From: an uncultured virus (IMG/VR IMGVR_UViG_3300020576_004096)
Lineage: Duplodnaviria; Heunggongvirae; Uroviricota; Caudoviricetes
IMG/VR virus record: IMGVR_UViG_3300020576_004096
DNA length: 64,000 nucleotides
Reading direction: 5' to 3' (one strand)
This document shows positions 7,649 to 43,664 of this stretch, in pieces; position 1 is the first letter of the stretch; each line of letters opens with the position of its first letter. The notes under the pieces were generated by a model, which was given only the letters and a program-made list of their open reading frames with translations, made no database searches and was not told the origin of the DNA. The position numbers were made by a program, and so were the translations under genes.

Positions 7649-8371
7649 ATGCCGACAAAGTTTAGTCCTAGGGGAGCGGTTAGGAGTTTGGCTATGCGAG
7701 TAAGACGTTTGGAAGTGGAATGGAACGGCGGCAAGGCGACGGTAGACTTGCGGGGCGAGTCTGGTAGTCCATTACCTATTGTTGGGATAGTAGGCGGGAA
7801 CGGCTCAGGGAAGAGCATGCTTCAGAAAATGGCATTGCGGCTATTTCGCAACGCCATGTATCCTGATACGAGTTTTGCGGACTGGGCTGCTGTGAGCGGG
7901 TATGGGGAACTGGAGTATGGGGGCGCAATAGCTACTGGTGTTGTAAAGCAGGGCAAAATAGTGCAAAGTTTGGTATTTCCTGATACGGTCTTGAAGGAGC
8001 GTCAGGTGTTGGGCGGGTTATTGGGGTACAACTCAGCATTATGCATGAGGTCATTTATTAGTGGTAGTGCTTTGGATTCAGGGGGATTTGGGGTAGAGAT
8101 GGTACGGTCTGTGTTGACTGATTTGTACAAGGGGGAGATAAGGAACTCTGTTATCTGGGTTGATTCGTTTGATGTCGGGTTGGATGATTCTTGTGCGCGG
8201 GAATTTTTGAAGGTTCTAGTTAAGAAGAGTTTGGAGAGGGACAATCAGTTGATTGTTAGCACTGCGCGGCGAGAGCTACTTTCTGGTATTGGCGAGGACG
8301 CTATCCGTCAACTCAGCGCTGGCACGAATGTTGTCGAGAAGATTCTCAAGACTCTCAAGACTCTCCGGTGA
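7649..8371 (+). CDS. ABC/AAA-type P-loop ATPase (start probably 7694)
   Basis: Walker A GGNGSGKS; Walker B-like VIWVDSFDVGLD; QLIVST. Confidence 0.7.
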   Translation: MPTKFSPRGAVRSLAMRVRRLEVEWNGGKATVDLRGESGSPLPIVGIVGGNGSGKSMLQKMALRLFRNAMYPDTSFADWAAVSGYGELEYGGAIATGVVKQGKIVQSLVFPDTVLKERQVLGGLLGYNSALCMRSFISGSALDSGGFGVEMVRSVLTDLYKGEIRNSVIWVDSFDVGLDDSCAREFLKVLVKKSLERDNQLIVSTARRELLSGIGEDAIRQLSAGTNVVEKILKTLKTLR

Positions 8372-8437
8372 ATTATATTCTTCTTAAGAAGAATATAATT
8401 AGAGACGAGCCACTGCGCAACCGTTTCTACCACTGAT

Positions 8438-9178
8438 TTAAGAAAACTTATAAGCGGAATCTTGGAGGGCAGTGAGTTCTCTGAGGTAAGTATCTTTATC
8501 AGTATGATAAGTGAACTTGAGGCCTGTGTTAAGTCTGAGTAGATTTTCGATAAGGCGGGCTGTACGGTTGGAGCCTTCTTTGAAAGGTTTGATACAAGCG
8601 AAGGAGAGGGAGGTGAGGTGGATCTGTCTTTCTAGGTCTTCCCAATGTTCTTTTTCCATGAGGATGGGCGCTTCGATACCTTCCTTGTACTTGTGATAAG
8701 TTTTAGAATAATTTGAGAAGAGGGAGGATAGGAGGGGTTTGATCTGGTCGGGAGGGGGCATAAGGCGATGACCGAGGGCTTTAGGTTCTTGGCGGTAGTT
8801 ACCAAGTTCTTCGGGTAGGGGGTAATCGATCTGGTTAAGGAGTTCTTGACCTTTGCGCGAAAAATCGTGGAGTAGGTTTTTATGAAGTTGTCTGACCCAG
8901 GGGAATAGCTTATCAAAACTTGCAGGAGTTATTAATTCTGGTTTTGGGATAAGCTCAGGATTTTTGGCAAGGTTGAATATAAGGTGGAGGCATCGCATTT
9001 GACCAGATACGGCTGCGTCTGCTCTTGTCGGTATAAGAAGATGCGCTTGAATCTGGTCATACTTGTGATTGATTTTTTCAAAAGAATTAGAATGCATGAT
9101 AAAGTTAACTTTATCATCTTCAGAGATTTCAGGGTAATATCTCTGGTCAAAGTCTGTCATAGGAATAAGTTCTTCCAT
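8438..9178 (-). CDS. Fic/Doc family protein with degenerate active-site motif
   Basis: IKPFKEGSNRTARL vs canonical HPFxDGNGRxxR; upstream GNYR motif. Confidence 0.7.
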   Translation of the reverse strand: MEELIPMTDFDQRYYPEISEDDKVNFIMHSNSFEKINHKYDQIQAHLLIPTRADAAVSGQMRCLHLIFNLAKNPELIPKPELITPASFDKLFPWVRQLHKNLLHDFSRKGQELLNQIDYPLPEELGNYRQEPKALGHRLMPPPDQIKPLLSSLFSNYSKTYHKYKEGIEAPILMEKEHWEDLERQIHLTSLSFACIKPFKEGSNRTARLIENLLRLNTGLKFTYHTDKDTYLRELTALQDSAYKFS

Positions 9179-11417: not shown

Positions 11418-11773
11418 GAAGCCAGAACTAAACTTTTGGCGACCTTGAAAATGGGGTAAGAGAGGCTTTGCATGCCTAACTGTTTGCAAACCTTAGAGAG
11501 AAAGTTTGGAGGGAACTAAACTTTTGCGCGAAAATTGAGGTTTGCAAGGTTGACTCGTATAAAGGTACGAGTTAGAGTAAGGAACAGAACGCCGTCCAGG
11601 ACTAAACTTTCTTGGGAAAAACAGAAAGGGCGTAAGAAGAGGTTGGTTGAGGCAAAACAGACGCCTAGAACTAAACTTCTTTCGGATTCTTGAAGACAGA
11701 GACAACTGAGGGCGACGAAAAGTAGTAGTCGGTTCTTGGAAGTCAATGAAAGCCATAAGTAGGAGTAATACAA

Positions 11774-12422: not shown

Positions 12423-14063
12423 ATGCCTAACGTTACGGTTCCCAAGTCGTTCTTCGTCAAAGAGCGCCGCATGTATTCGAACTGGCAGTTCGCTTTTTGG
12501 CGCGAACTTTTTCAGAACTCGACGGACGCCAAGGCTTCTCGCATTGACGTTGAAATTGTTAAGAAGGACAACGGAATCATTGGAGTTTCCTTCGACGACA
12601 ACGGCACCGGCATGAGCCGAGAGGTCTTGGAAAACGTCTATTTCAGCCTTGGTTCAACGACCAAGACGGGCGGCTCAACGGTTGGCGGCTTTGGCCGAGC
12701 CAGGCTGTTGACTTGCTTCTCCATGAAGAACTACACGATTCATACCCAGGACAACTTGGTTCAGGGCGAGGGCGGTTCTTACGACATCGCAACGGTTGAT
12801 TTGCGTCATGGCTGCTTGCTTCGAGTTGAAATCGAGGACGAAAGCTATGACCGCTTGTACGGCGAGCTTGATAACTACCTCCGTAGCAGCCAGATGTACT
12901 GCGACGTTTATGTTAATGGCGTTCGCTTCGGTCATTGGTGTCACCGCCGTCAGCTTACTCGTCAACTTCTTGTTCATAACGCTCCTTTTGCGAACGTTTA
13001 TGTTAACAAGTCGGCTGCAAATCATCGGCTGCTTGTACGAGTCTCTGGCGCGATCATGTACAGTCAGTCGATTGGGGCCAAGGCTCAAGTCATCGTTGAG
13101 GTTGAGCCGAGCTTGAGCCGAGAGGTTTTGACGGCAAATCGAGACGGCATGCACTCGATGTACTCTTCTGTTCTTGAGGCATTTGTGCAGGAGCTTGCCG
13201 TTGATACGGTTTCGGCTCTGAAGCCTCGGTTCAAGAAGAAGGACGCCACGATCAAGGGTCGCGGGCTTATCTTCTCGGTCTCGCCGAAGGCTGGAACTAA
13301 ACTTCCGAAGAGGGAGATTGAGCCTGGCGCTGAAGTCAAGGTTCTGGCGGCGGCTCGCGCTTCGGGTTCGGTTTATACAAGGCCTGTTGAGGGCGAGGAG
13401 CCTGTTCGTCGGTCTGCGATTTTGGATACGACAACGGTTCGCGCTGCGGAAATCATTGGCGGGGTTTTGGGCGGCGGCGAGATGCTTGACCGTCTTATGA
13501 ATACTCCCGCTGTTGAAACGATTCCGAGCCGAGTCGGTAAGAAGTATCACAGCGGTTTGCCTGACATCTTCATGGACGACGATACGGAGAACGAGAAGAT
13601 TCGGAAGGTCATTGATCTTTACAATCCTGAGAACTGGATTGTTGCTGCTCAGGGCGACACAACTTATAACAAGGGCTTTACCATGTACAAGCTCTTGATG
13701 TTGTGGAAGGTTGCCTGTCAGTATGCGATTGACGCCATGATGAAGAAGCATGAGTCGATTGCGCAGGTTGTTTGGGGGATTGGTTGGACGTTCTCGGATA
13801 CTGCTACTGCGAAGCACATGGCTGTTGACGGCGGTTCAGCGTTGCTGTTGAACCCTGTTGATAAGGACGGCAAGCTTCGGTACGGTCTGCGGGACCAAAA
13901 GGACCAGAAGAAGCTCATGGCCTTGGCAAAGCATGAGGTTGCGCATACGATTCATGGTTGGCACAATGAGGAGTTTGCCTCTCTGCTTACTGACATTGAC
14001 GAGTATTTTGACGAACGGGAGGTCTATCGGGCGATGCGGGAAATGTTGGACAGCCTCAACTAG
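12423..14063 (+). CDS. GHKL (HATPase_c) ATPase fused to a C-terminal HEXXH zincin-like domain
   Basis: RELFQNSTDA, DDNGTGM, GGFGRA; C-terminal KHEVAH...HNEEF. Confidence 0.75.
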   Translation: MPNVTVPKSFFVKERRMYSNWQFAFWRELFQNSTDAKASRIDVEIVKKDNGIIGVSFDDNGTGMSREVLENVYFSLGSTTKTGGSTVGGFGRARLLTCFSMKNYTIHTQDNLVQGEGGSYDIATVDLRHGCLLRVEIEDESYDRLYGELDNYLRSSQMYCDVYVNGVRFGHWCHRRQLTRQLLVHNAPFANVYVNKSAANHRLLVRVSGAIMYSQSIGAKAQVIVEVEPSLSREVLTANRDGMHSMYSSVLEAFVQELAVDTVSALKPRFKKKDATIKGRGLIFSVSPKAGTKLPKREIEPGAEVKVLAAARASGSVYTRPVEGEEPVRRSAILDTTTVRAAEIIGGVLGGGEMLDRLMNTPAVETIPSRVGKKYHSGLPDIFMDDDTENEKIRKVIDLYNPENWIVAAQGDTTYNKGFTMYKLLMLWKVACQYAIDAMMKKHESIAQVVWGIGWTFSDTATAKHMAVDGGSALLLNPVDKDGKLRYGLRDQKDQKKLMALAKHEVAHTIHGWHNEEFASLLTDIDEYFDEREVYRAMREMLDSLN

Positions 14064-16044: not shown

Positions 16045-16490
16045 AGATTAGCCAGTACATCAAGACCATCGAGGTTGCTGACCCTGACAATCCTGGTCAG
16101 GTTATTCATCTCGATATCCATAAGGTGGACGGCGGTTTCATTGGCGTTGACGCTTCTTTCACGGAAGAGGTCGCTAACTATATCGCAAACCCTTATCAGG
16201 ATTGCGAGCTTGTGAAGTTGACCGATTCTTTGGGTAACGACGAAGAGATTGACCCTCCGCTGGAAGAAGACGAGCTTGTTGGTTTCTTGCGCATTTTGGT
16301 GGCGATTGACCGAACCTCTCAGCTTTTGGACGAAAAGCAGCGAGAGCTTCTTCTGAGCGGCATTGCAAAGAGAGCCGGACTAACGCTTGATCGATTGAGC
16401 GTTCTGTTTGGTCTTGCAAAGCAGTGTTTGGACGGAGCGGCGTTGTATCAGTTCCAGAAAGTTTTGAGAGATGAATCCAAGCCTGAATGA
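16041..16490 (+). CDS. hypothetical protein
   Basis: ATGA coupling. Confidence 0.65.
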   Translation: MKISQYIKTIEVADPDNPGQVIHLDIHKVDGGFIGVDASFTEEVANYIANPYQDCELVKLTDSLGNDEEIDPPLEEDELVGFLRILVAIDRTSQLLDEKQRELLLSGIAKRAGLTLDRLSVLFGLAKQCLDGAALYQFQKVLRDESKPE

Positions 16491-17139
16491 TATTGTGATT
16501 ATTGGCGACGTTCATGGGAAGTGGCCCATGCTTAAGAACGTCTGCGATAAGTACGCGAAGAAGACGGTTCTTGGTCTTGGCGACGTTGGTATTGGCTTTG
16601 TTGGAAGCCGAGAGCCGAAGCTGCCTGAGAACTTTCGTTTCTTCCGCGGAAATCATGACAATCCAGCAGTTTGCAGAGCGCATCCGCAGTATGCTGTCGA
16701 GTACGGCATGTGGAACGGTCTGTACATTGTTGCTGGCGCTGACTCTGTTGATAAGAAGTGGAGAAAAGAGGGCATTGATTGGTGGCCTGACGAGCAGCTT
16801 GGTCGAGAGGTCATGGAGCTTGCGCTTGAGGATTATATCAAGACCAAGCCTGATATCCTGATTTGCCATGAGGCTCCTTTCAGGATTCATCAGATTGCCA
16901 AGGCTGCTTCTTGCACTTATGACCGCAACAACGAGGGTTGGGGCGAGCCAAAGGGAAATTCCACAGCTTTCTTGCTTGATTCGATGATTCAGGCTCATAT
17001 GCCTAAGATGCTCGTACATGGGCATTGGCATAATCCTCTCATCTATAAGCAGTGGGGCTGCGTCTTTATCTCCTTGGGAGAGCTTGAGGCGCTGGATTTG
17101 GAAGCGGCGCTGGCGTACTACAAAATCAAGCTGAGCTAG
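16471..17139 (+). CDS. calcineurin-like metallophosphoesterase
   Basis: GDVHG, GDVG, RGNHD, HEAP, HGHWH motifs. Confidence 0.85.
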   Translation: MNPSLNDIVIIGDVHGKWPMLKNVCDKYAKKTVLGLGDVGIGFVGSREPKLPENFRFFRGNHDNPAVCRAHPQYAVEYGMWNGLYIVAGADSVDKKWRKEGIDWWPDEQLGREVMELALEDYIKTKPDILICHEAPFRIHQIAKAASCTYDRNNEGWGEPKGNSTAFLLDSMIQAHMPKMLVHGHWHNPLIYKQWGCVFISLGELEALDLEAALAYYKIKLS

Positions 17140-17176
17140 AGTTCACAAAATTCTTTGGTGGAAATTGAAGGAGTTT

Positions 17177-17205
17177 TTGACTTCTAGCCGAAAAGAGAGT
17201 ATCAT
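17177..17205 (+). promoter_or_regulatory. sigma70-type promoter for Leu leader/tRNA-Leu cluster
   Basis: TTGACT-17 nt-TATCAT. Confidence 0.65.
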
Positions 17206-17263
17206 GATTACCATGAAGACCAACTTCGTCAGCTTGTTATGCGGCCTCCTACTCCTTACCTAA
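17204..17263 (+). CDS. Leu-rich attenuator leader peptide MITMKTNFVSLLCGLLLLT (alternative start 17213)
   Basis: six Leu codons TTG TTA CTC CTA CTC CTT just before the stop and the antiterminator. Confidence 0.8.
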   Translation: MITMKTNFVSLLCGLLLLT

Positions 17264-17325
17264 AGGGATGGAAGTCGTTGCGCAATCGCACATCGAACCC
17301 CATCCCTAAAAAGATGGGGTTTTTT
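17264..17325 (+). terminator. attenuator: antiterminator AGGGATGG and terminator AACCCCATC/GATGGGGTT-TTTT
   Basis: 17264-17271 complementary to 17300-17307, overlapping the terminator 5' arm. Confidence 0.8.
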
Positions 17326-17335
17326 CGTTAATATC

Positions 17336-17409
17336 GCTCATGTATCCCAACTGGCAGAGGAGCAATCCTGAGAAGGTTGTTGTTGGAGGTTCGAATCCTC
17401 TCATGAGCA
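17336..17409 (+). tRNA. tRNA-Leu(GAG), short variable loop
   Basis: cloverleaf; loop CTGAGAA. Confidence 0.85.
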
Positions 17410-17413
17410 TTTA

Positions 17414-17497
17414 GGCCTTGTGGCGGAATTGGCAGACGCGCTACCTTGAGGTGGTAGTTTCCGTAAGGAAGTGCAGGTTCGAGTCCTGTCAAGGCCA
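17414..17497 (+). tRNA. tRNA-Leu(GAG)
   Basis: cloverleaf with long variable arm; loop TTGAGGT. Confidence 0.92.
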
Positions 17498-17515
17498 TTT
17501 GATAACTGAATATGC

Positions 17516-17597
17516 GGCCCTGTGGCGAAATTGGCAGATGCGTCAGACTTAGGATCTGGTGCCGAAAGGCGTGGAGGTTCGAATCCTCTCAGGGTCA
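17516..17597 (+). tRNA. tRNA-Leu(TAG)
   Basis: loop CTTAGGA; long variable arm. Confidence 0.92.
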
Positions 17598-17610
17598 TTT
17601 TAGATTACAG

Positions 17611-17694
17611 GCCCCTGTGGCGGAACTGGCAGACGCGCTTGACTCAAAATCAAGTTCTCGCAAGGGAGTGGAGGTTCAAGTCCTCTCAGGGGCA
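17611..17694 (+). tRNA. tRNA-Leu(CAA)
   Basis: loop CTCAAAA; long variable arm. Confidence 0.92.
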
Positions 17695-17699
17695 TTCTC

Positions 17700-17776
17700 G
17701 TCCAAGTAGCACAATTTTGGCAGATGCAGCTACCTCAAACGTAGTACGGTGATGGGTTCGAATCCCTCCTTGGACA
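17700..17776 (+). tRNA. tRNA-Leu(CAA), short variable loop
   Basis: loop CTCAAAC. Confidence 0.8.
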
Positions 17777-17800
17777 TTCTCGCTCCTAACGGAGAAGCTC

Positions 17801-17876
17801 GCTCTTGTAGCCCAACCTTGGCAGAGGCGCTAGACTCAGAATCTAGATGTTGCTGGTTCGAATCCAGTCAAGAGCA
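17801..17876 (+). tRNA. tRNA-Leu(CAG), short variable loop
   Basis: loop CTCAGAA. Confidence 0.88.
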
Positions 17877-17892
17877 TTCAGAACTAAACTTC

Positions 17893-17966
17893 GGCTCCAT
17901 AGCACAATCGGCAGATGCAGTTGATTTAAGGTCAAAGGGTTGAGAGTTCGAATCTCTCTGGAGCTA
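17893..17966 (+). tRNA. tRNA-Leu(TAA), short variable loop
   Basis: loop TTTAAGG. Confidence 0.8.
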
Positions 17967-17968
17967 TT

Positions 17969-18388
17969 ATGACAGCGCTTGCTTCTTCTCGTTCTCATAC
18001 TCTTAAGCTAGCAACCGCTGTTCAAAGCGAAGCGGACCTCCGTAAGGAAAAAACTCTTTCTGGATTTCAACTGATAAAGTCCGCGAGGAGGCCCGATTTG
18101 GACCTTATTGCGGACGCTTTTTCTTTTGCGCAAGACAGTCCTCTTCAATACAAGGTCATTGACCTGATTGCGATTTATCGAAGCGTTCTGGAAATGAGAG
18201 ACGATATTCACTCTTCCAGAGTCTCTACCTGCGATAAGTTCCTGGACGAGGTAGAGAAGTGTCTCAATCACTTCTTGGACCATAAGACTTTGCCTGAGCG
18301 CAAAATGACTGTTTCTCAAATCATTGGCCCCGTGGCGAAACTGGCAGACGCAACGGACTTAAAATCCGTAGCCCGTAAAAAGGCGTAG
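17969..18388 (+). CDS. hypothetical protein between tRNA genes; 3' end reads into tRNA-Leu(TAA)
   Basis: ORF track. Confidence 0.45.
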   Translation: MTALASSRSHTLKLATAVQSEADLRKEKTLSGFQLIKSARRPDLDLIADAFSFAQDSPLQYKVIDLIAIYRSVLEMRDDIHSSRVSTCDKFLDEVEKCLNHFLDHKTLPERKMTVSQIIGPVAKLADATDLKSVARKKA

Positions 18389-18411
18389 GGGTTCAAATCC
18401 CCTCGGGGCCA
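18326..18411 (+). tRNA. tRNA-Leu(TAA)
   Basis: loop CTTAAAA; long variable arm. Confidence 0.92.
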
Positions 18412-18462
18412 TTTCACTTGCAACAAGTCCAAGACTAAACTTTCGGCATAGAGTTCTAGACT

Positions 18463-19677
18463 ATGGAAAGCCGCCAAGGTATTTCACAAGCCCAAGCCCT
18501 CAAGCTCATTGAGCTTGCCCAAAAGAGCGGAAGGCCTTGCAACGTCAAGCTCATCAACAAAGAGATAAGGGGAAAGCCCAATAGGGCCATCCTCAAGAGG
18601 GTCTTGAACAGTCACAAAGTCATTGTTCGGCCTTTCAAGCATGGACATGACGAAGAAGAGTTGCTCTCCAATGTCTTCTTTTGGAAGAGCGGTTGCGATT
18701 TTGACATTTCGGAGGCCGAGAACATGCCGACTTCTACCGATTTTCGGAAGCCGCTGGGGGAACGACTTTCCATCCCAACGAGCGTTGTACCCAATGGCGC
18801 GCCTGCTGGTGAGTTTGTTATCTTCAGCGCGAAGATGAAATCAGTCTGGGGCGGACATGAAAGGCGTTGGACGCAGAACTTCAACCTCGCTAACAAGTGG
18901 AGGGACCACGGCGACGGCATGAGGGCCATTGGGAAAATCAACAAGGTTCCCATGCAAGACGACGCTGTTCTCTTGCCAATCAACGAAGCCCATGACGCTC
19001 TCCTTGAGGTTTTGACGGCTCCTCAGTCAGCCGCTCAGTCGTCTCCTTCTCCAACCCTTCCGTTCAAACCGCAGACACCTCCAATGACACCTCCAACCGT
19101 CGTTCAGCCTCCTCGCCCCACTGCGCCGGCCCTTTCTGCTTCTCTTCTTTCGGTCGCGAGACCGCAGCCCGTCATGCCCGTCAATCTTGGCGAAGACGAC
19201 GATTTTATCGACGTTGACGCCTTCTTGGGCAAGGACGACGCTTCTTTGAAGCTCGCCGAGGAAGAGCGGAAGAAGGCCATCTACGAGTACGGCCTCGCAA
19301 AGAAGGCTGTCGAGGAAGCTCAGAAGACCGTTTACGCAGCCAAGCAGAAGATTGCGGAGCTTGACGAGCGGGTGCAAACCCTGGGCGGCTCTTCGGTTCT
19401 GAAGGGCAACAAGGAGAAGAAGCCAAGGGGGAAGCGCCTTCGTCTGTTCCCCAACATCAAGGAGATTCTCACGACGCATTCTCGTCTTGACCTCTCTGGT
19501 GTTTATGACAGGCTTCTCCCCTCATTCCCTAAGCTTGACCGTAATAAGCTCAGTAAGAACCTGACGAACTACAAGATTCGAGGTCTTGTTGAACGAGACG
19601 ACAACGGAGGTTGGGCGCTGACTGCTCTTGGTCGCAGCAATGCTGATGACAACGACGAAGGCGACGACGAGAACTAA
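18463..19677 (+). CDS. multi-domain protein: Pro-rich linker, coiled coil, C-terminal winged-helix-like region
   Basis: ACTAAACTT 20 nt before ATG; GLVER...GGWALTALG ending. Confidence 0.7.
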   Translation: MESRQGISQAQALKLIELAQKSGRPCNVKLINKEIRGKPNRAILKRVLNSHKVIVRPFKHGHDEEELLSNVFFWKSGCDFDISEAENMPTSTDFRKPLGERLSIPTSVVPNGAPAGEFVIFSAKMKSVWGGHERRWTQNFNLANKWRDHGDGMRAIGKINKVPMQDDAVLLPINEAHDALLEVLTAPQSAAQSSPSPTLPFKPQTPPMTPPTVVQPPRPTAPALSASLLSVARPQPVMPVNLGEDDDFIDVDAFLGKDDASLKLAEEERKKAIYEYGLAKKAVEEAQKTVYAAKQKIAELDERVQTLGGSSVLKGNKEKKPRGKRLRLFPNIKEILTTHSRLDLSGVYDRLLPSFPKLDRNKLSKNLTNYKIRGLVERDDNGGWALTALGRSNADDNDEGDDEN

Positions 19678-19725
19678 ACTTTCCAAAGAGGGTGGCTCTC
19701 TGTTGAATCAGCCGATAATGGAAGT

Positions 19726-19818
19726 GCGGCAGGCTCCCATGTACGTTTGGTAGGCGTTAGTCGATTTGAAAACGACTAAAACAAAAGGGGCAAGCGGGTT
19801 TCAAGCCCGCCTGCCGCA
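19726..19818 (+). ncRNA. tRNA-like RNA (acceptor stem and T-arm, non-canonical middle)
   Basis: GCGGCAG/CTGCCGC-A; GCGGG-TTTCAAG-CCCGC. Confidence 0.5.
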
Positions 19819-19823
19819 TTCAA

Positions 19824-20240
19824 ATGAGAATCTTGTTTCTTGATGACATGAAAAGCAGGCGAGACGCATTTCGCCAAAACTCAATTGGCTGCGTTGTTGA
19901 CTTTGCTATCACTGCGCAAGAAGCAATTGATCTTCTGAAAAAGAACGAGTATGACGCGATCTATCTTGATCACGATCTTGAAGAAGAACATTACCAATCG
20001 AACAAAGACGATCATGAGGATGGTCGTTTTGTTGCGCGTCATTTGAAAGATATGACGCAGCATCATGGTAAGATTGTGATCATTCATAGCTTGAATCCTG
20101 TTGGCAGGGCAAACATGAAGTCCATTTTGGACGTTCATTTTGATGTTTGGATGCCAGAGAATGTTAAGGTTTCAGAGCTTTGGAAAGTTGAAGTTGCAAC
20201 ACTGATTGGCGCAATTCACAAATTCAATAATCAGAATTGA
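19824..20240 (+). CDS. cyclic-phosphate-processing receiver-domain protein
   Basis: ILFLDD..R, IYLDHDL, IIHSLNPVG motifs. Confidence 0.7.
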   Translation: MRILFLDDMKSRRDAFRQNSIGCVVDFAITAQEAIDLLKKNEYDAIYLDHDLEEEHYQSNKDDHEDGRFVARHLKDMTQHHGKIVIIHSLNPVGRANMKSILDVHFDVWMPENVKVSELWKVEVATLIGAIHKFNNQN

Positions 20241-20311
20241 AAAGGATTCCAGAACTTCTTCTTGTAATACTTTCTTGTCGATAGACACGATAGTAGAAAA
20301 GGAGAAAGTTC

Positions 20312-20608
20312 ATGAACTCACAGGAATTCTTGGCAAGCGCAGAAATCGGAAGCATTGTACAGGTTGTCTGGAGAGGCGCAACGTTTGATCCAGACGCTGT
20401 TCTAAAACCAGGCGAAGCTTCTAATGGCCTAAGCAAAGTATATACTTGCGGCTTTGTTGCTTTTATAGGGCAAAACAAAGAGTTTGTCACTGTTGGCATT
20501 GATTCAATGTTTGAAGCTGGAAATAAAGAACCCAGCTTTAGATCGTTGATTACTATTCCAGTAGCTACGATTGAAAGCGCAGAGATTTACGGAAAAGTTT
20601 CACAATAA
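20312..20608 (+). CDS. hypothetical protein
   Basis: AAGGAG SD. Confidence 0.65.
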   Translation: MNSQEFLASAEIGSIVQVVWRGATFDPDAVLKPGEASNGLSKVYTCGFVAFIGQNKEFVTVGIDSMFEAGNKEPSFRSLITIPVATIESAEIYGKVSQ

Positions 20609-20748
20609 AGAAGGAATTCATAACGCATAATCGTTATGGGTGAGAATCGGGGTCTTAATCGCATTTAGGCAGTTTCCAAAAATGGCCTAGTTTCCGTAAG
20701 CGGAAAATGACGGATTTTAGGAAACTACAGAAAAGCGTGAAAAGATTG

Positions 20749-20777
20749 TTGACTTTTGCGAAAAAAGCCGATACAGT
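20749..20777 (+). promoter_or_regulatory. sigma70-type promoter for Ile/Val/His/Trp leader
   Basis: TTGACT-17 nt-TACAGT. Confidence 0.55.
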
Positions 20778-20818
20778 AGAATACGGAGTTCTCTCGAATA
20801 GAGAGTGGATTGAAACAA

Positions 20819-20884
20819 ATGAACAGCATAGTCGTACATCAGGTGATTTGGCATGTCATTACCTCAAGGGGTAAGGACTGTTAA
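20819..20884 (+). CDS. attenuator leader peptide MNSIVVHQVIWHVITSRGKDC
   Basis: 10 of codons 4-14 are Ile/Val/His/Trp; contains the antiterminator segment. Confidence 0.8.
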   Translation: MNSIVVHQVIWHVITSRGKDC

Positions 20885-20913
20885 CTACTTGATGTACGTT
20901 AGCAGGTTTTCCG

Positions 20914-20945
20914 AACCCCTTGAGCAGAAGCTTGAGGGGTTTTTT
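20914..20945 (+). terminator. attenuator terminator AACCCCTTGAGC-AGAA-GCTTGAGGGGTT-TTTT
   Basis: 5' arm 20915-20924 is the exact complement of CTCAAGGGGT 20863-20872. Confidence 0.85.
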
Positions 20946-20978
20946 CTTTGACAATTGAATATTTTCAGGTACAAAGTT

Positions 20979-21049
20979 ACGCCGTTGGTCTAGTGGCTGG
21001 GCCTTGGATTCCAAATCCAACGACGCGGGTTCGATTCCCCCACGGCGTG
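20979..21049 (+). tRNA. tRNA-Trp(CCA)
   Basis: loop TTCCAAA. Confidence 0.85.
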
Positions 21050-21123
21050 TTGACTTGATTGTGAAAAGTAAAAAGATACGATACATCTTCTGAGCGCTTA
21101 CTTTTACCACTTGGAGCAAATCC

Positions 21124-21423
21124 ATGTCCGACTCCCCCAAAGCTGTCAGAAATCGTCGTCCGCTTCAGAAGCCAGTATTTATTCTTCAACCTTTTGATTC
21201 TGCAAATCCTGAGCATATGAAGGGTAACATCACTATTACCCTGAATAAGGCTCTGGCTCTTGAGCTTACCAGGTTCATCAAAGAAAGCGAACTTGGCGAA
21301 AACGAGGGGCATATCTACGCAATGCAGGGTCACATCAGTCGTTGGTTCAAGCAGCGTTCGGATGAAATCAAGAAGCAGAAAGAAACGAAAACTGAAGAAG
21401 TTCAGCCGGAAGGTCAGAACTAA
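21124..21423 (+). CDS. hypothetical protein
   Basis: GGAG SD; stop inside ACTAAACTT. Confidence 0.65.
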   Translation: MSDSPKAVRNRRPLQKPVFILQPFDSANPEHMKGNITITLNKALALELTRFIKESELGENEGHIYAMQGHISRWFKQRSDEIKKQKETKTEEVQPEGQN

Positions 21424-21435
21424 ACTTCAGAGCAT

Positions 21436-21508
21436 GGGCGCATAACTCAATGGCTAGAGTGCCACCTTTACACGGTGGAAGTTGTCGGTTCGAGTCCGGC
21501 TGTGCCTA
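21436..21508 (+). tRNA. tRNA-Val(TAC)
   Basis: loop TTTACAC. Confidence 0.92.
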
Positions 21509-21597
21509 CTTTAGAAAACTCAGGTTAGCTAAACCTGCTCAAAAATGAGTACCCGCTAGTTTTGACTTGTAAAATCAAGGAGTTCTAGCAGCTTTAT

Positions 21598-21672
21598 GGT
21601 GGTCGTAGCTCAACTGGTTAGAGCATCTGGTTGTGATCCAGAGGGTTACGGGTTCGAGTCCCGCCGATCACC
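21598..21672 (+). tRNA. tRNA-His(GTG) with encoded G-1
   Basis: loop TTGTGAT; G-1:C73. Confidence 0.92.
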
Positions 21673-21751
21673 CTTGTCAGAAATCTTTGGAATAAAGAAG
21701 GATTCTTCTAACACCTCACAGTAATCACACTTGAGGTATAAGGAGAATCAA

Positions 21752-22201
21752 ATGAATACCAAAGACATTGGAGATAAATCTGAGGCTATAATCTTCTGCG
21801 AATTGGTAAAAAGAGGTTTTACAGTTCTAAAACCTTGGGGAGATAACAGGAAATACGATTTCGTAGTTGATATAGGTAAAGGAGATTTTCAAAGAATACA
21901 GAGTAAAACTGGTTACATAGAAAATGGAGTAATCAGATTCACTCCAAGATCAGTAACCACAGAAAACGGAAAAACAAAAACGGTTTCTTACTCAAAAGAT
22001 GACATAGATTTTTTTATGGTCTATTGCAGAGATAATGATAAAATATACTGCATTAGCATAGAAGATTGCCCTAAGGATACCTGCTTTCTAAGATTGGAAC
22101 CATCTAAAAATGGGCAAACAAAAGGAATCAGGATGGCAAGCAACTTTGAGTTGGATAAAAAGATAACGGCCCTTAGCTCACATGGTAGAGCGAACGCCTG
22201 A
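21752..22201 (+). CDS. PD-(D/E)XK homing-type endonuclease
   Basis: GDKSE...PWGDNRKYDFVVD...RIQSK; AT-rich; inside tRNA cluster. Confidence 0.8.
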   Translation: MNTKDIGDKSEAIIFCELVKRGFTVLKPWGDNRKYDFVVDIGKGDFQRIQSKTGYIENGVIRFTPRSVTTENGKTKTVSYSKDDIDFFMVYCRDNDKIYCISIEDCPKDTCFLRLEPSKNGQTKGIRMASNFELDKKITALSSHGRANA

Positions 22202-22239
22202 TAAGCGTTAGGTTGAGGATTCGAGCGCCTCAGGGCCGA
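22167..22239 (+). tRNA. tRNA-Ile(GAT)
   Basis: loop CTGATAA; one T-stem mismatch. Confidence 0.8.
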
Positions 22240-22289
22240 TTTGATAAGGGAGGGGTCGGGATTTCAATATTCCCCAGTCCTATTTTGTT

Positions 22290-22377
22290 TGGAGCGTGGG
22301 CCGAGATGGATAGGCAACCGACTGATAATCGGTGAGGCGTAACAACGCTAACGCAGGTTCGATTCCTGTCGCTCCAA
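22290..22377 (+). tRNA. tRNA-Ile(GAT) with long variable arm
   Basis: loop CTGATAA; variable hairpin GCGT-AACA-ACGC. Confidence 0.75.
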
Positions 22378-22384
22378 CTTTACT

Positions 22385-22457
22385 GGTCGATTAGCTCAAT
22401 GGCTAGAGCATTGTCTTGACGTGACAGAGGTTACAGGTTCGAGTCCTGTATCGACCA
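22385..22457 (+). tRNA. tRNA-Val(GAC)
   Basis: loop TTGACGT. Confidence 0.92.
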
Positions 22458-22492
22458 CTTAGAACTAAACTTCTTGAGGGAAAAACAAACGC

Positions 22493-22774
22493 ATGGCGAT
22501 TGACGCGAACCTTAAATCGAGACTGCCCAAAATGGTTTTGTCTCATTTGAAGAATGCTTCGGGAGGCATAAAGCTTACCGAGCTTGTCGCAAAAATCGTC
22601 TCGGAACTTCTTGAAAGAAAGGAAGTTCTGCCTGACGATTTCGTTGAGCAGTTTGAAGTTTTGCTGGAATCCATGTCGTCATACGGAGTTCATATCCTGA
22701 ACTACGACTGGGATATGGGTGGAGACGGTCACGGGCCTTACAGAAACAAAGTCTTCGTCTATACGAAGTGGTAG
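22493..22774 (+). CDS. hypothetical protein
   Basis: ACTAAACTT 20 nt before ATG. Confidence 0.7.
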   Translation: MAIDANLKSRLPKMVLSHLKNASGGIKLTELVAKIVSELLERKEVLPDDFVEQFEVLLESMSSYGVHILNYDWDMGGDGHGPYRNKVFVYTKW

Positions 22775-22781
22775 GAGGTAT

Positions 22782-23699
22782 ATGCGCAAAGACATGGCAA
22801 AGGTCTTGGTCGAACGCCCCCGAAGGGGTGGTTGCGGCAAGGAGCGGATTCGTCAGAACCGCCATTTGACTCGTCAGGTTTGTAAGGACATTCCGTTCGA
22901 AGAAGATTGGGATACTCCTGATTTTCGCGGAATGAAGAGAGTTCACACCTCGAAGCCCAACTCCTACGACGACAAGAAGCAGTTGAACGAAAATCTCAAC
23001 CCGCTTCGTCGTTTCCTGAATTCTCGCATTGGTCAGCCTTGGGACAAGGTTTACAGCGAGATCATGAGCGGCCTCAATCTGAAGAACGCTGTCCAGTACC
23101 ATGTTTGGCAGCACTTGATTAGCTTCGGCGAAGTCCAGACCAAGACTTACATGGAAGGTAACACTGTCATGGCTGCTGGGGTCATTGGCCCTCAGACCAT
23201 GACGACTTCTTATGGTCGCGAAGAGTTCTACGTTGATCCCCGAGACGGGACACTGCGCAAGACGAAGCGCGAAAGCTCAAAATACCGTCGAGACAAACTC
23301 CCGAGCAACAACAGCTACTACGACTCGAAGAAGCCTTTGCTTCAGTACCACAAGATCGGTGAGGTTTGGTACGAGTTCAAGTTTCGTGAGGCGACGGCTG
23401 AAGAAAAGAAGCAGAAGTCGTTTGGCGAAATGTGCCGAGACTTCAGCAACTTGACCATGAAGTGGGAATGGAAGTGGCATCCCCTGAGCAGCAACAAGTT
23501 CGTCAGCCAAATCATTGACGGTAAGAAGATTGAGCCTCATCACTACTACTGTCATGACCGCCTTTGGTCGGTTTGCCAATCGCTCTTCGGCGGCGCTTAT
23601 TTGCCGACCGAGAAGCGGCAAGTCTCCTCGAAGGAGGTTCGCAAGGTTGAGGAACTGATGGCGGAGCGAAATCGCAAGCTTTCTCGTAAGGCTGTGTAA
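22782..23699 (+). CDS. conserved hypothetical basic protein
   Basis: AGGAGG SD; LNENLNPLRRFL..RIGQPWDKVYSEI motif. Confidence 0.75.
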   Translation: MRKDMAKVLVERPRRGGCGKERIRQNRHLTRQVCKDIPFEEDWDTPDFRGMKRVHTSKPNSYDDKKQLNENLNPLRRFLNSRIGQPWDKVYSEIMSGLNLKNAVQYHVWQHLISFGEVQTKTYMEGNTVMAAGVIGPQTMTTSYGREEFYVDPRDGTLRKTKRESSKYRRDKLPSNNSYYDSKKPLLQYHKIGEVWYEFKFREATAEEKKQKSFGEMCRDFSNLTMKWEWKWHPLSSNKFVSQIIDGKKIEPHHYYCHDRLWSVCQSLFGGAYLPTEKRQVSSKEVRKVEELMAERNRKLSRKAV

Positions 23700-23794
23700 T
23701 GTGAAGACGGCGGAACTAAACTTCCGTTAGTCGAGAAAGAGTTGGCGGGCGATTAGCTCAGCGGTAGAGCAGGATGAAAAGAAGTTAGACATTA

Positions 23795-23867
23795 CGGCTG
23801 GTGCGCTGAAAGGTTAAGCGCCCAACTCATAATTGGGGATATGCAGGTTCGAGCCCTGTCCAGCCGA
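23795..23867 (+). tRNA. tRNA with CAT anticodon (Met or Ile2)
   Basis: loop CTCATAA. Confidence 0.85.
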
Positions 23868-23870
23868 TTC

Positions 23871-23944
23871 GGGCGGTTAACTTAGCGGCCTAAAGTAGAA
23901 GACTCATAATCTTCCTATCGTGAGTTCAAATCTCACACCGCCCA
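23871..23944 (+). tRNA. tRNA with CAT anticodon (Ile2 or Met)
   Basis: loop CTCATAA. Confidence 0.85.
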
Positions 23945-23945
23945 T

Positions 23946-24452
23946 TCATTTCATATTGAAGTATTTACCGTTTTTCTTTGCAATTTCATCTTCAATTTCC
24001 TGATGACAATTGTGACAATAAAGGTCGCATTTTTCTGCTTCTTTTAGAACTGCTTCCCAACCAAGACCTCTTATTGATCTCATTTCAAGAGCAAACTGCT
24101 TGGTGGACGGGTCTCTGTGATGAAAAGTCAAAGCTCGTAAGCATTTGTTATAGCCACAAGACTTACAACATCCTCCTTTCATGTCTACGAGCTTTTGTTT
24201 CCTGTCATAACCACTTTTCCAAACATAAAGTCTATTCTTTTCTTTTGCCTCTTCTGTCCATGTTGAATATTCTTTTACTTTATGACCTTCTTGGCCTCTG
24301 AGCGAAAGCCTTGACGGATCATCTGGTTTAGTATTGTGACAACCAAAAGGAGAACATTCTAGACAGAATTTTCTATTTTGAAGATTCCTTCTTTTGCCTT
24401 CGATTATCACTGTTTTGGGCATTTCTTTTTGGCATTTGAAACAAGTTTTCAT
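23946..24452 (-). CDS. HNH endonuclease (Cys-rich)
   Basis: CCKSCGY...LTFHHRDP...CDLYCHNCHQE. Confidence 0.85.
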   Translation of the reverse strand: MKTCFKCQKEMPKTVIIEGKRRNLQNRKFCLECSPFGCHNTKPDDPSRLSLRGQEGHKVKEYSTWTEEAKEKNRLYVWKSGYDRKQKLVDMKGGCCKSCGYNKCLRALTFHHRDPSTKQFALEMRSIRGLGWEAVLKEAEKCDLYCHNCHQEIEDEIAKKNGKYFNMK

Positions 24453-25661: not shown

Positions 25662-25754
25662 GGGCGAGTAGCTCAGAGAAGAAGAGGAGTCACATCCTCG
25701 AAGGAGCGGCGAGCGCAAGCTCGCAGGTCGTTGGTTCGAATCCAACCTTGCCCA
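25662..25754 (+). ncRNA. tRNA-like RNA with GCAA tetraloop in place of anticodon loop
   Basis: GGGCGAG/CTTGCCC-A; GTTGG-TTCGAAT-CCAAC; GCGAGC-GCAA-GCTCGC. Confidence 0.65.
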
Positions 25755-25762
25755 CTTTCTCC

Positions 25763-26410
25763 TTGACAAGTGAATATGGTAAGCGGTGACTGAAAATCTA
25801 ACGCCTATCTCCAGGCGTAAGGTACTGGACTCATTGGTGGTTCAGGTACAAGTAAGTCGTTTCGGTGTAGTGCAGAAGGAAAGTGGGTATCCGGCAAAGG
25901 CCAATAGGAAAACCACTGGGGCGCTAAGTCCTGACTGGCCATAATCAATTTTGACCAGGGGAGCAGGATTGCAGGTAATCATACCTGTCTCGGAGAGGCC
26001 TGATTCGAAGCAGGTCTCTATGATGAGTCGCATAATAACACTGGGATGGACGAAAGTTCAGAAGCTCGTAACTTCTGCCGCTTACCATGTTCACTTGTTG
26101 AAAAACTAAATAGGGTTGCATTGAACTTCTCCGTAGTAAATTGGCATGACCCTAGTTGATGCAAACGGCAACCAACTCCTGTAAGGGTTGGATTGCATTT
26201 AGACGGAAGCTTTGATCTCTTGGAAAGATAAATGTAGTCGGAAGAAATTACAGACTATGGGGTAAGGCCCCCAAAGCGTTAGCAACGGAAATGAGAGGAA
26301 AACCTACTCTCAACCCCAGCCGTAAGGTATGGATAACCAGCTAGCGCATCCGACGAAAAGAGGGAGCAACCGTTACTGAGGTTCTGTTTGATCGACAGTT
26401 CCTCGGTTTC
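25763..26410 (+). ncRNA. candidate large structured ncRNA (GOLLD-class context)
   Basis: about 650 nt without a credible ORF between tRNA genes; 24-bp long-range stem 25763-25786/26078-26101. Confidence 0.55.
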
Positions 26411-26417
26411 AAAAGAT

Positions 26418-26492
26418 TGCAGAGGAGTGAAACGGATTATCATCCGTGGCTCATAACCACTGGGATAGTGGGTTCGACTCCCACCTCTGCTA
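26418..26492 (+). tRNA. tRNA-Met(CAT), initiator-like
   Basis: loop CTCATAA; unpaired 1:72. Confidence 0.75.
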
Positions 26493-26566: not shown

Positions 26567-26636
26567 AGCCTTGTGTTGCCTGTGGAAGGCCTCCGCATCC
26601 AACGGAAGACTACGGGTTCGAATCCCGTCAAGGATG
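26567..26636 (+). ncRNA. degenerate tRNA or tRNA-like element
   Basis: ACGGG-TTCGAAT-CCCGT T-arm; loop CATCCAA lacks U33. Confidence 0.45.
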
Positions 26637-43524: not shown

Positions 43525-43664
43525 GCCGACATAGCTCAACTGGTTAGAGCAACAGCGTCTCCCGAGCATGGAGCTATAGCGTAGCTCTGAGCAAAGGATG
43601 ACCGAGCCGAACGCTACGGCGGGAAAAGCTGAGGTTGGAGGTTCGAGTCCTCTTGTCGGCACCA
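43525..43664 (+). ncRNA. tRNA scaffold with about 70-nt structured insert replacing the anticodon loop; encoded CCA
   Basis: GCCGACA/TGTCGGC-ACCA, canonical D- and T-arms. Confidence 0.75.

Follow-up and report, generated by a model that had tools for sequence, protein, structure and literature searches.

A 64,000-nucleotide (nt) stretch of DNA from the uncultured virus IMGVR_UViG_3300020576_004096, referred to here as the window, carries two short elements placed immediately before clusters of tRNA genes. We interpret both as ribosome-mediated (leader-peptide) transcription attenuators whose regulated genes are the tRNA genes themselves, with expression raised by slow decoding of the leader codons, and we put the probability of this interpretation at about three in four. 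One leader is rich in Leu codons and precedes eight tRNA-Leu genes. The other is composed largely of Ile, Val, His and Trp codons and precedes tRNA genes for the same four amino acids.

Two leader units upstream of the tRNA genes

The Ile/Val/His/Trp unit consists of a sigma-70-like promoter, a leader open reading frame (ORF), a protector hairpin enclosing an antiterminator strand, and an intrinsic terminator (Table 1). An earlier note on this DNA, made by reading the sequence, had claimed the promoter, the leader and the identity of codons 4-14 (ATA GTC GTA CAT CAG GTG ATT TGG CAT GTC ATT, at 20828-20860), and all of these were found where it had placed them. The complementarity that it described between the antiterminator strand and the terminator 5' arm proved exact on rechecking, and its protector is a helix of 13 pairs, two of them G-U, that forms part of the minimum-energy fold of the window leader. 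The antiterminator duplex amounts to -18.8 kcal/mol. The transcript from 20784 to 20950 folds as protector plus terminator at -65.4 kcal/mol (z -6.83), and none of 200 shuffled sequences was as stable.

The Leu locus to which the earlier note referred does have a unit of the same build before its tRNA cluster, extending from 17177 to 17322. Six of the eight codons in its leader run are Leu. The leader ATG sits only 7 nt after the -10 hexamer, so the mRNA is probably leaderless; in the relatives L003 and L004, introduced below, a TATAGT lies 6 nt before the ATG. The fold of the Leu unit has a z of -3.66, with one of 200 shuffles as stable, and its equivalent of the protector is weaker. Its terminator ends 14 nt before the first tRNA-Leu and no promoter-like element lies in between. 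Across eight leaders, the antiterminator strand is found 9-20 nt ahead of the stop in leaders of the Ile/Val/His/Trp type and at or just past the stop in the Leu type.

The arrangement is rare. Among the 87,541 stop-free 11-codon segments in the six frames of the 64 kb, at least nine of 11 Ile, Val, His or Trp codons occur in only three, which overlap and all lie in this leader. A complement to the terminator arm as good as the one in the window Ile/Val/His/Trp leader arose in one of 1000 shuffled upstream regions, and the same test gave 2, 18, 17 and 2 per 1000 for four relatives and 4, 8 and 3 per 1000 for three Leu leaders. The pattern TTGAC-N16-18-TAnnnT has seven sites on the + strand of the whole window, two of which are the promoters of these leaders. 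At gathering score, Rfam matched no leader family (Leu, His, Thr or Trp) and no T-box in the window, and a search of 17100-21000 up to E = 5 returned nothing but one PyrR-site row at chance level (25.8 bits, cut-off 54, E 1.5).

Table 1. Features of the two leader units, the tRNA clusters that follow them and the genes among them
Feature	Position	Strand	Details
Leu promoter	17177..17205	+	TTGACT-17-TATCAT; hexamer scan
Leu leader ORF	17213..17263	+	MKTNFVSLLCGLLLLT; Leu codons TTG TTA CTC CTA CTC CTT
Leu antiterminator strand	17264..17271	+	AGGGATGG; pairs with 17300-17307 (terminator arm and loop), -15.5 kcal/mol
Leu-locus intrinsic terminator	17295..17322	+	10 pairs and T-run
Eight tRNA-Leu	17336..18412	+	GAG x2, TAG, CAA x2, CAG, TAA x2
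Ile/Val/His/Trp promoter, sigma-70-like	20749..20777	+	TTGACT-17-TACAGT; -35 at 20749-20754, -10 at 20772-20777
Ile/Val/His/Trp leader ORF	20819..20884	+	MNSIVVHQVIWHVITSRGKDC; 21 codons and stop; ATG 20819, TAA 20882-20884
Protector (anti-antiterminator) hairpin	20833..20898	+	CGTACATCAGGTG (20833-20845) pairs with TACTTGATGTACG (20886-20898); encloses antiterminator strand
Antiterminator strand	20863..20872	+	CTCAAGGGGT; leader codons 15-18; exact reverse complement of terminator 5' arm ACCCCTTGAG (20915-20924)
Intrinsic terminator	20913..20945	+	13-pair stem (20913-20942), AGAA loop, T-run
Conserved 14-nt box	20948..20961	+	TTGACAATTGAATA; between terminator and tRNA-Trp
tRNA-Trp (CCA)	20978..21050	+	
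99-amino-acid ORF	21124..21423	+	No assigned function; Shine-Dalgarno-like GGAG; position kept in L024 and L027
tRNA-Val (TAC)	21436..21509	+	ACTAAACTT at 21419 upstream
tRNA-His (GTG)	21599..21673	+	
PD-(D/E)XK endonuclease gene	21752..22201	+	PF11645, E 7.6e-39; 3' end overlaps tRNA-Ile
tRNA-Ile (GAT)	22167..22239	+	
tRNA-Ile (GAT), long variable arm	22290..22378	+	89 nt; kept in L001, L024, L025 and L026
tRNA-Val (GAC)	22385..22458	+	
305-amino-acid protein	22782..23699	+	No assigned function; conserved marker of the tRNA region
Two CAT-anticodon tRNAs	23795..23867, 23871..23944	+	Met or Ile2; 2.9 kb downstream
HNH endonuclease gene	23946..24452	-	Just past the cluster
Scattered tRNA genes	25662, 26419, 31007, 43525		Four, without preceding leader

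Leader codons and downstream anticodons

In six of six contigs the Ile, Val, His and Trp types present in the leader are the tRNA types found behind the terminator, and the correspondence holds in both directions. The downstream set reported earlier, with Trp(CCA), Val(TAC), His(GTG), two Ile(GAT), Val(GAC) and two CAT-anticodon tRNAs, was recovered in full, as was the count of ten control codons in 11 with a matching amino acid in the cluster. The match extends to single anticodons. In the second leader, GTC, GTA/GTG, CAT, ATT and TGG correspond to GAC, TAC, GTG, GAT and CCA, and the Leu leader has TTG, TTA, CTC/CTT and CTA for CAA, TAA, GAG and TAG, leaving CAG as the only anticodon without a cognate codon. 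ATA, which opens the control codons in all five versions of the leader, would require an Ile2-type CAT tRNA. The ARAGORN structures of the two CAT tRNAs show no initiator features and do not separate Met from Ile2, and a search among annotated phage tRNAs found none similar to them. The nonmatching eighth codon varies, being CAG (Gln) in the window, GAG (Glu) in L024 and CAC (His) in L028. The L028 leader lacks a Trp codon and its cluster lacks tRNA-Trp, the first tRNA being Val-TAC. This joint loss is a single evolutionary event, and so is suggestive, not decisive.

Codon usage was counted for 40 confidently predicted phage genes that have the motif ACTAAACTT at their head (4,858 codons). TTA is absent from these genes, CTA occurs once, ATA three times and GTA nine times, and all four codons occur in the leaders. 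Because codons that are nearly absent from the phage genes are used, the leaders are not written in the codon usage of the phage, and they appear instead to be composed to sample isoacceptors. The phage genes are almost devoid of A-ending codons in general (AAA 72 against AAG 308), yet tRNAs with the anticodons TAA, TAG, TAC and TTT are carried.

Sequence change among related phages

The window has a G+C content of 50% and genes nearly all on the + strand, and looks like a piece of a huge uncultured phage. Most of its proteins have no family assignment. Completeness ratings for two related IMG/VR contigs, of 57 and 75 kb, are 11% and 15%, and contigs of 465 and 495 kb carry homologues of one window protein. 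A DNA search among known phages found no close relative, and the protein-level match there was only 27%, to Myxococcus phage Mx1. Parts of the stretch are contained in 20 public runs, mainly from wastewater or activated sludge.

Relatives were identified by searching with the 305-amino-acid protein and then with an alignment of its homologues. The first search gave two close IMG/VR contigs, L001/L004 and L002/L003, and the second gave distant metagenome contigs with marker-protein identities of 47% (L023/L024, which derive from one contig of 464,748 nt), 48% (L025) and 44% (L028). Across the phages with leader versions the marker protein is 44-89% identical. The order of Leu cluster, Trp/Val/His/Ile/Val cluster and CAT tRNAs is kept in the relatives; the tRNA-His of L024 was detected by Rfam only, and the start of L025 coincides with its Leu-terminator T-run.

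Every contig that extends far enough upstream carries the leader. There are five distinct Ile/Val/His/Trp versions, with the ORF open in all of them, as it is in three Leu leader versions. The leader of L004 is identical to that of the window, and the others are MNSIVVHQVIWHVITSRGSDC (L003), MNSIVVHQVIWHVITSRGKGC (L025), MNVIVHEVIWHIVTRGGKDC (L024) and MNSIVVHHVIIINSSLEDN (L028). Pairs of -35 and -10 hexamers equivalent to those of the window are found in L003, L004, L025 and L024, and the protector helix recurs in the folds of L025, L003 and L028; the pairing differs in L024. The contig L026 begins within the tRNA cluster and so is uninformative on the leader, and in L027, a relative at 40% identity, the leader is absent from the 1,033 nt upstream of the first tRNA. 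A degenerate 21-nt leader pattern was found at 12 loci in genome contigs and eight in viral contigs, of which 18 were rejected as chance matches inside unrelated sequence, the true homologues being only the two IMG/VR contigs already known. When 103 sequences (1.16 Mb) were scanned for tRNAs with a terminator in the 150 nt upstream, the cases outside the clade were L020 (Thr), L031 and L032 (Gln) and L051 (Leu), and no leader that matched was seen in any of them.

At the DNA level the leader ORF of the window shares 93% identity with that of L025, whereas the promoter, 5' untranslated region, terminator spacer and upstream gene are 54-68% identical. Because the leader ORF is more identical than its flanks, selection acts on the leader nucleotides, synonymous sites included. 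Constraint at the nucleotide level is the expectation for an element that is read both as codons and as RNA structure.

Covarying pairs were tabulated for each sequence, indexed on the terminator 5' arm; in MAFFT alignments the 3' arms of L003 and L025 are displaced by one column. Positions 7-11 of the terminator show double-sided changes among the five sequences (U-G or U-A to G-C, G-C to A-U, and A-U to G-C). Some of these changes are followed by both alternative partners. Where arm position 7 has changed from U to G in L025, the terminator partner has changed from G or A to C and the antiterminator partner from A to C, and in L024, which has G for A at arm position 9, the antiterminator partner has changed from U to C and the terminator partner has changed to match. 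In L028 the terminator sequence is unrelated to the others and the 3' third of the leader has been rewritten, with 11 pairs possible between it and the new arm and loop (-15.0 kcal/mol, 2/1000 shuffles). The maintenance of both alternative helices through sequence change is the strongest evidence for a real switch. All the sequence-level predictions that follow from a codon-matched attenuator, as the earlier note had proposed it, were borne out in the anatomy, the Leu twin, the five leader versions, the compensating changes and the joint absence of Trp codon and tRNA-Trp in L028.

Predicted folding around a ribosome

The ribosome was modelled by blocking 29 nt around each A-site codon, and folds were calculated both for the stage before the terminator 3' arm exists and at full length. 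In the absence of the 3' arm, with the A site on codons 2-12, the antiterminator pairs with 10-11 of the 12 arm bases in the window, 7-9 bases in L003 and in L025, and 9 in L028. With the ribosome at late codons or at the stop, the number of paired arm bases is 5 in the window, 2 in L003 and 1-6 in L025. The Leu leaders drop from six paired arm bases to none or one with the ribosome late. The switch geometry of L024 is less clean. In the full-length equilibrium fold the terminator is lost for stalls on codons 7-13 in the Leu leaders and 3-11 in L028.

A model for control of the tRNA genes

From the anatomy of the units, their rarity, their conservation, the covariation and the match of codons to anticodons, all of which are read directly in the DNA, we infer leader translation, kinetic coupling, a read-through response and feedback, in the following way. 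A host-type RNA polymerase would start at the TTGACT promoter with a ribosome translating the leader close behind. A ribosome that reaches the stop codon would mask the antiterminator strand, allowing the terminator to form and ending transcription before the first tRNA. If no ribosome were present, the protector hairpin would sequester the antiterminator strand, and termination would follow as well. When charged tRNA is scarce, a ribosome stalled on the Ile, Val, His or Trp codons (or on the Leu codons of the other unit) would cover the 5' strand of the protector and leave the antiterminator free to pair with the emerging terminator 5' arm, and the polymerase would continue into the tRNA genes. 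The tRNAs made by read-through would relieve the stall, giving negative feedback on decoding capacity. Such feedback would act on each isoacceptor separately, since nearly all the codon families read by the anticodons of the clusters are sampled in the leaders.

A broader interpretation is more tentative, and we give it slightly less than an even chance. The units would form a codon-by-codon sensor of decoding capacity, in which depletion of any host tRNA switches on replacements that are switched off after recovery, so that the tRNA genes, sorted by leader, would provide a self-regulating counter-defence together with translation homeostasis. Depletion of host tRNAs could arise from codon-usage mismatch, host shut-off or tRNA-cleaving anti-phage defences. 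The sorting by leader, which had also been suggested earlier, holds for the 14 of 20 tRNA-like genes that directly follow a leader; it does not extend to the four that have none, nor comfortably to the two CAT tRNAs far downstream of the second leader.

Several observations weigh against attenuation of the tRNA genes. The full-length fold of the window Ile/Val/His/Trp leader loses its terminator only for a stall at TGG, and because the equilibrium fold otherwise keeps the terminator, this unit must work kinetically, as the trp attenuator does. The antiterminator is also the lowest-energy fold when neither a ribosome nor the 3' arm is present, so that an untranslated transcript need not terminate. 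The Ile/Val/His/Trp leader lacks a clear Shine-Dalgarno sequence, its CAG (Gln) codon has no tRNA in the cluster, and the antiterminator of L024 contains two mismatches. Leu-rich runs are common, with 20 segments at about 12 places in the six frames; since such a run alone is not rare, the case for the Leu unit rests on its position and architecture, and the Leu leader is known from only three nearly identical sequences. The box and the three ACTAAACTT copies within the second cluster, described below, could be independent signals for the start or processing of transcripts. The runs compared with the window, of which two were metatranscriptomic, one was doubtful RNA and one was DNA, consist of contigs, which carry no information on transcript ends, depth or read-through. 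An HNH gene is inserted at the attenuator terminator in L003 and in a variant strain from the DNA run, where the insert is 517 nt at the terminator loop (20923/20928). In these alleles a terminator is rebuilt upstream of the insert, and the relic half before tRNA-Trp is without an antiterminator.

Alternative explanations

It is conceivable, although unlikely, that the attenuators are real but report amino-acid starvation and time the expression of the 99-, 93- and 305-amino-acid ORFs, the tRNAs being passengers without any feedback on their supply. Classical leader attenuators sense charged tRNA and cannot distinguish a missing amino acid from a missing tRNA, and conserved protein genes do lie inside the second cluster. 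However, most of these protein genes have a ACTAAACTT motif of their own, and directly behind the Leu unit there are only seven tRNA-Leu genes and an ORF overlapping the eighth. The use of five Leu and three Val codons, including those that the phage avoids, suits the sensing of isoacceptors and not of an amino acid, and the loss of the Trp codon tracks the loss of the tRNA-Trp gene.

We consider it similarly improbable that the attenuator is of minor importance, setting a low early level or acting as an insulator, and that most tRNA expression is driven by internal signals, namely the TTGACAAGTGAATA-type box and ACTAAACTT. The box lies between the terminator and the first tRNA in the window, L003, L024, L025 and L028, as this explanation would have it, but is not found there in the Leu unit or in L004. 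It has 19 copies in the window and related loci (overlapping and duplicate loci counted separately), with one more in the unrelated L022, and its variants TTGACAAGTGAATA, TTGAAAACAGAATA and TTGGCAAGTGAATA are found 7-19 nt upstream of tRNAs and other RNAs in several phage lineages, among them those of L001-L004 and L023-L028. The earlier note had read the box region as a weak TTGACA-16-TACAAA promoter that might bypass the terminator. The hexamers are indeed present at 20948-20975, but we do not read them as a bypass promoter, because the -10 is not conserved (TACAAA, TATTTT, TGAAAT, CACTGC and TCCCGT in the window and relatives), a start 7 nt past it would fall inside tRNA-Trp, and the copy of the box at 25763 is one strand of a 25-pair RNA helix, and so is transcribed there and is not a promoter. 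The near-perfect conservation of the leader also argues for strong selection on it.

The helix at 25763 belongs to a structured RNA of about 340 nt (25763-26107; -132.9 kcal/mol, z -5.96, none of 100 shuffles as stable). It is closed by pairing of the box region (25763-25776) with approximately 26082-26107, is kept in L001, L002, L025 and L026, has no Rfam match, and sits between a tRNA-like gene at 25662-25755 and tRNA-Met at 26419. The box is upstream of tRNA-Trp in the window, but in L004 it comes after another tRNA-Trp; in L026 it has a tRNA 5' fragment on one side and an intact tRNA on the other, as though it were the boundary of a tRNA cassette that can be exchanged.

The other internal signal, ACTAAACTT, does occur inside the cluster as had been noted, at 21419, 22464 and 23715. 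It precedes five tRNAs, among them Val(TAC), Leu(TAA) at 17893, Lys and the tRNA at 43525, which would favor a role in their expression. The whole window has 85 copies on the + strand (for example at 21419, 24538, 28482 and 30214) and one on the - strand, with an extended consensus of RGR-ACTAAACTT-YC. Exactly 20 nt downstream of 37 of the 85 there is an ATG, and in 40 the TAA of the motif is the stop codon of an open frame at least 50 codons long. No copy occurs in L024-L028, and L025 has GGCTAGACTTTC 14 times instead. As a gene-start signal the motif is specific to the lineage, and it is either a promoter or an element that acts at the RNA level. Sigma-70-like promoters at 11550 and 28677 sit about 20 nt upstream of ACTAAACTT copies, which therefore lie in RNA at those places, and this counts against the motif as the source of tRNA transcription. 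Flanking stems of at least two pairs are commoner around the motif (34/85) than at random places (692/5000); as a hairpin loop, however, it was rejected, with 35 of the 85 copies lacking any flanking pair.

A chance arrangement, in which a spurious short ORF happens to lie among a constitutive promoter, a 5' region that is rich in hairpins but untranslated, and an ordinary terminator, is very improbable. Promoter-like hexamer pairs in the region are not above chance (13 against 11.8 +/- 3.2 expected), and the lack of a match to any Rfam leader family would also fit an accident. Neither point accounts for a codon run that is unique in the window, for an ORF that stays open with the same residue classes in five versions and exceeds its flanks in conservation, synonymous sites included, for covariation in both helices, or for a second unit with the same logic. 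Least credible of all is that the short ORFs encode small hydrophobic trans-acting peptides and the terminator merely ends their mRNA: the peptide sequence is conserved, and an attenuator leader peptide acting in trans is reported in Sinorhizobium (PMC7298713), but the antiterminator complement, its covariation and the match to the downstream tRNAs are left unexplained, and in L028 the C-terminal third has been freely replaced, with only complementarity to the new terminator kept.

Gene content of the tRNA region

In the window ARAGORN detected 19 tRNA genes and Rfam 20. The second cluster is not a clean tRNA operon, as it also holds the 99-amino-acid ORF, the PD-(D/E)XK endonuclease gene, a 93-amino-acid ORF and the 305-amino-acid ORF. 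The 305-amino-acid protein has no Pfam or PHROG family and no Protein Data Bank fold match at E <= 0.001 (model mean pLDDT 74.8). It has 262 homologues at E <= 0.001, and these adjoin tRNA genes again in phages that are only 28-42% identical (L005, L007, L020 and L031).

Homing-type endonuclease genes (PD-(D/E)XK and HNH) are dispersed in the tRNA clusters, and tRNA content varies among close relatives. Among the relatives, endonuclease genes lie at 12428-12886 (-) in L003 and at 8034-8537 and 9318-10000 in L024. At 23744-23794 the 5' half of a tRNA (acceptor and D arm) has been truncated by an insertion carrying the CAT tRNA at 23795. One RNA-library contig resumes at 23765 with an intact CAT anticodon arm, and the gene is therefore uninterrupted in some strains. 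The tRNA at 43525-43661 is 137 nt long, with an insertion after the anticodon region and ACTAAACTT upstream; it scored 47.5 bits in Rfam and was missed by ARAGORN. A weak tRNA-like match at 26567-26636 (24.3 bits) is under the cut-off.

The best Rfam score of the L024 version of the long-arm tRNA-Ile is a weak tRNA-Sec-like match. Nematode tRNAs that combine an Ile anticodon with a long variable arm are reported to carry leucine (PMC4300185), and the charging identity of the tRNA at 22290-22378 is therefore worth testing.

A metallophosphoesterase gene (16471-17139) lies directly upstream of the Leu leader, and a cyclic-phosphate-processing receiver domain protein (PF20274, E 2e-16) is encoded at 19824-20240, between the two tRNA clusters. 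Together they may provide an RNA-repair context for the tRNA region.

Relation to known attenuators

Neither the regulation of phage tRNA genes nor the reason that phages carry them is settled. The roles proposed for them are codon compensation and the replacement of tRNAs destroyed by host defences (PMC10264068, PMC11555353). If attenuation of the tRNA genes is correct, no direct feedback by which decoding speed governs the transcription of tRNA genes would have been described before it, and the phage would be measuring the supply of individual isoacceptors. A search of full-text literature, with subscription journals mostly outside it and an older report therefore possible, found no account of leader-peptide attenuation of tRNA genes. 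The question would become testable with a 200-nt element in a reporter or cell-free system, and the signature of a short ORF, a terminator and a matching tRNA set could find regulated tRNA operons in viral and plasmid genomes.

The closest known counterparts are the ilvGMEDA and ilvBN leaders of enterobacterial branched-chain amino-acid operons and the thr leader, which are multivalent attenuators in which the regulatory codons are mixed and the position of the ribosome decides the outcome. The Ile/Val/His/Trp unit resembles them in having a promoter, a short ORF of mixed codons and mutually exclusive protector, antiterminator and terminator helices. Those leaders control enzymes that synthesize the sensed amino acids, whereas the phage unit would control the tRNAs that read its own codons; it is viral, and its codon set follows the tRNA cluster and not a metabolic pathway. 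Bacterial leuL, which repeats one or two rare Leu codons, shares with the phage Leu unit a run of Leu codons before an intrinsic terminator. Unlike leuL, the phage leader has five different Leu codons (TTG TTA CTC CTA CTT), corresponding to the anticodons CAA, TAA, GAG and TAG, and its mRNA is probably leaderless.

Among the attenuators of translation genes the closest is that of pheST, which, with its pheM leader, controls phenylalanyl-tRNA synthetase, and is alike in applying leader-peptide attenuation to the translation machinery and in sensing the cognate charged tRNA. However, its target is a synthetase protein and not tRNA genes, and it has no direct loop from codon to anticodon. T-boxes also attenuate transcription according to tRNA status by a choice between terminator and antiterminator, but they bind uncharged tRNA directly through a specifier codon, without translation, whereas the control region of the phage unit is an ORF that is probably translated and has no T-box match. 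The genes downstream of classical attenuators are those for biosynthesis or synthetases, whereas here they are tRNAs and small ORFs with no assigned function. It is in its target that the phage unit departs from the classical attenuators, since the genes behind it are viral ones for the very tRNAs that read its sensor codons.

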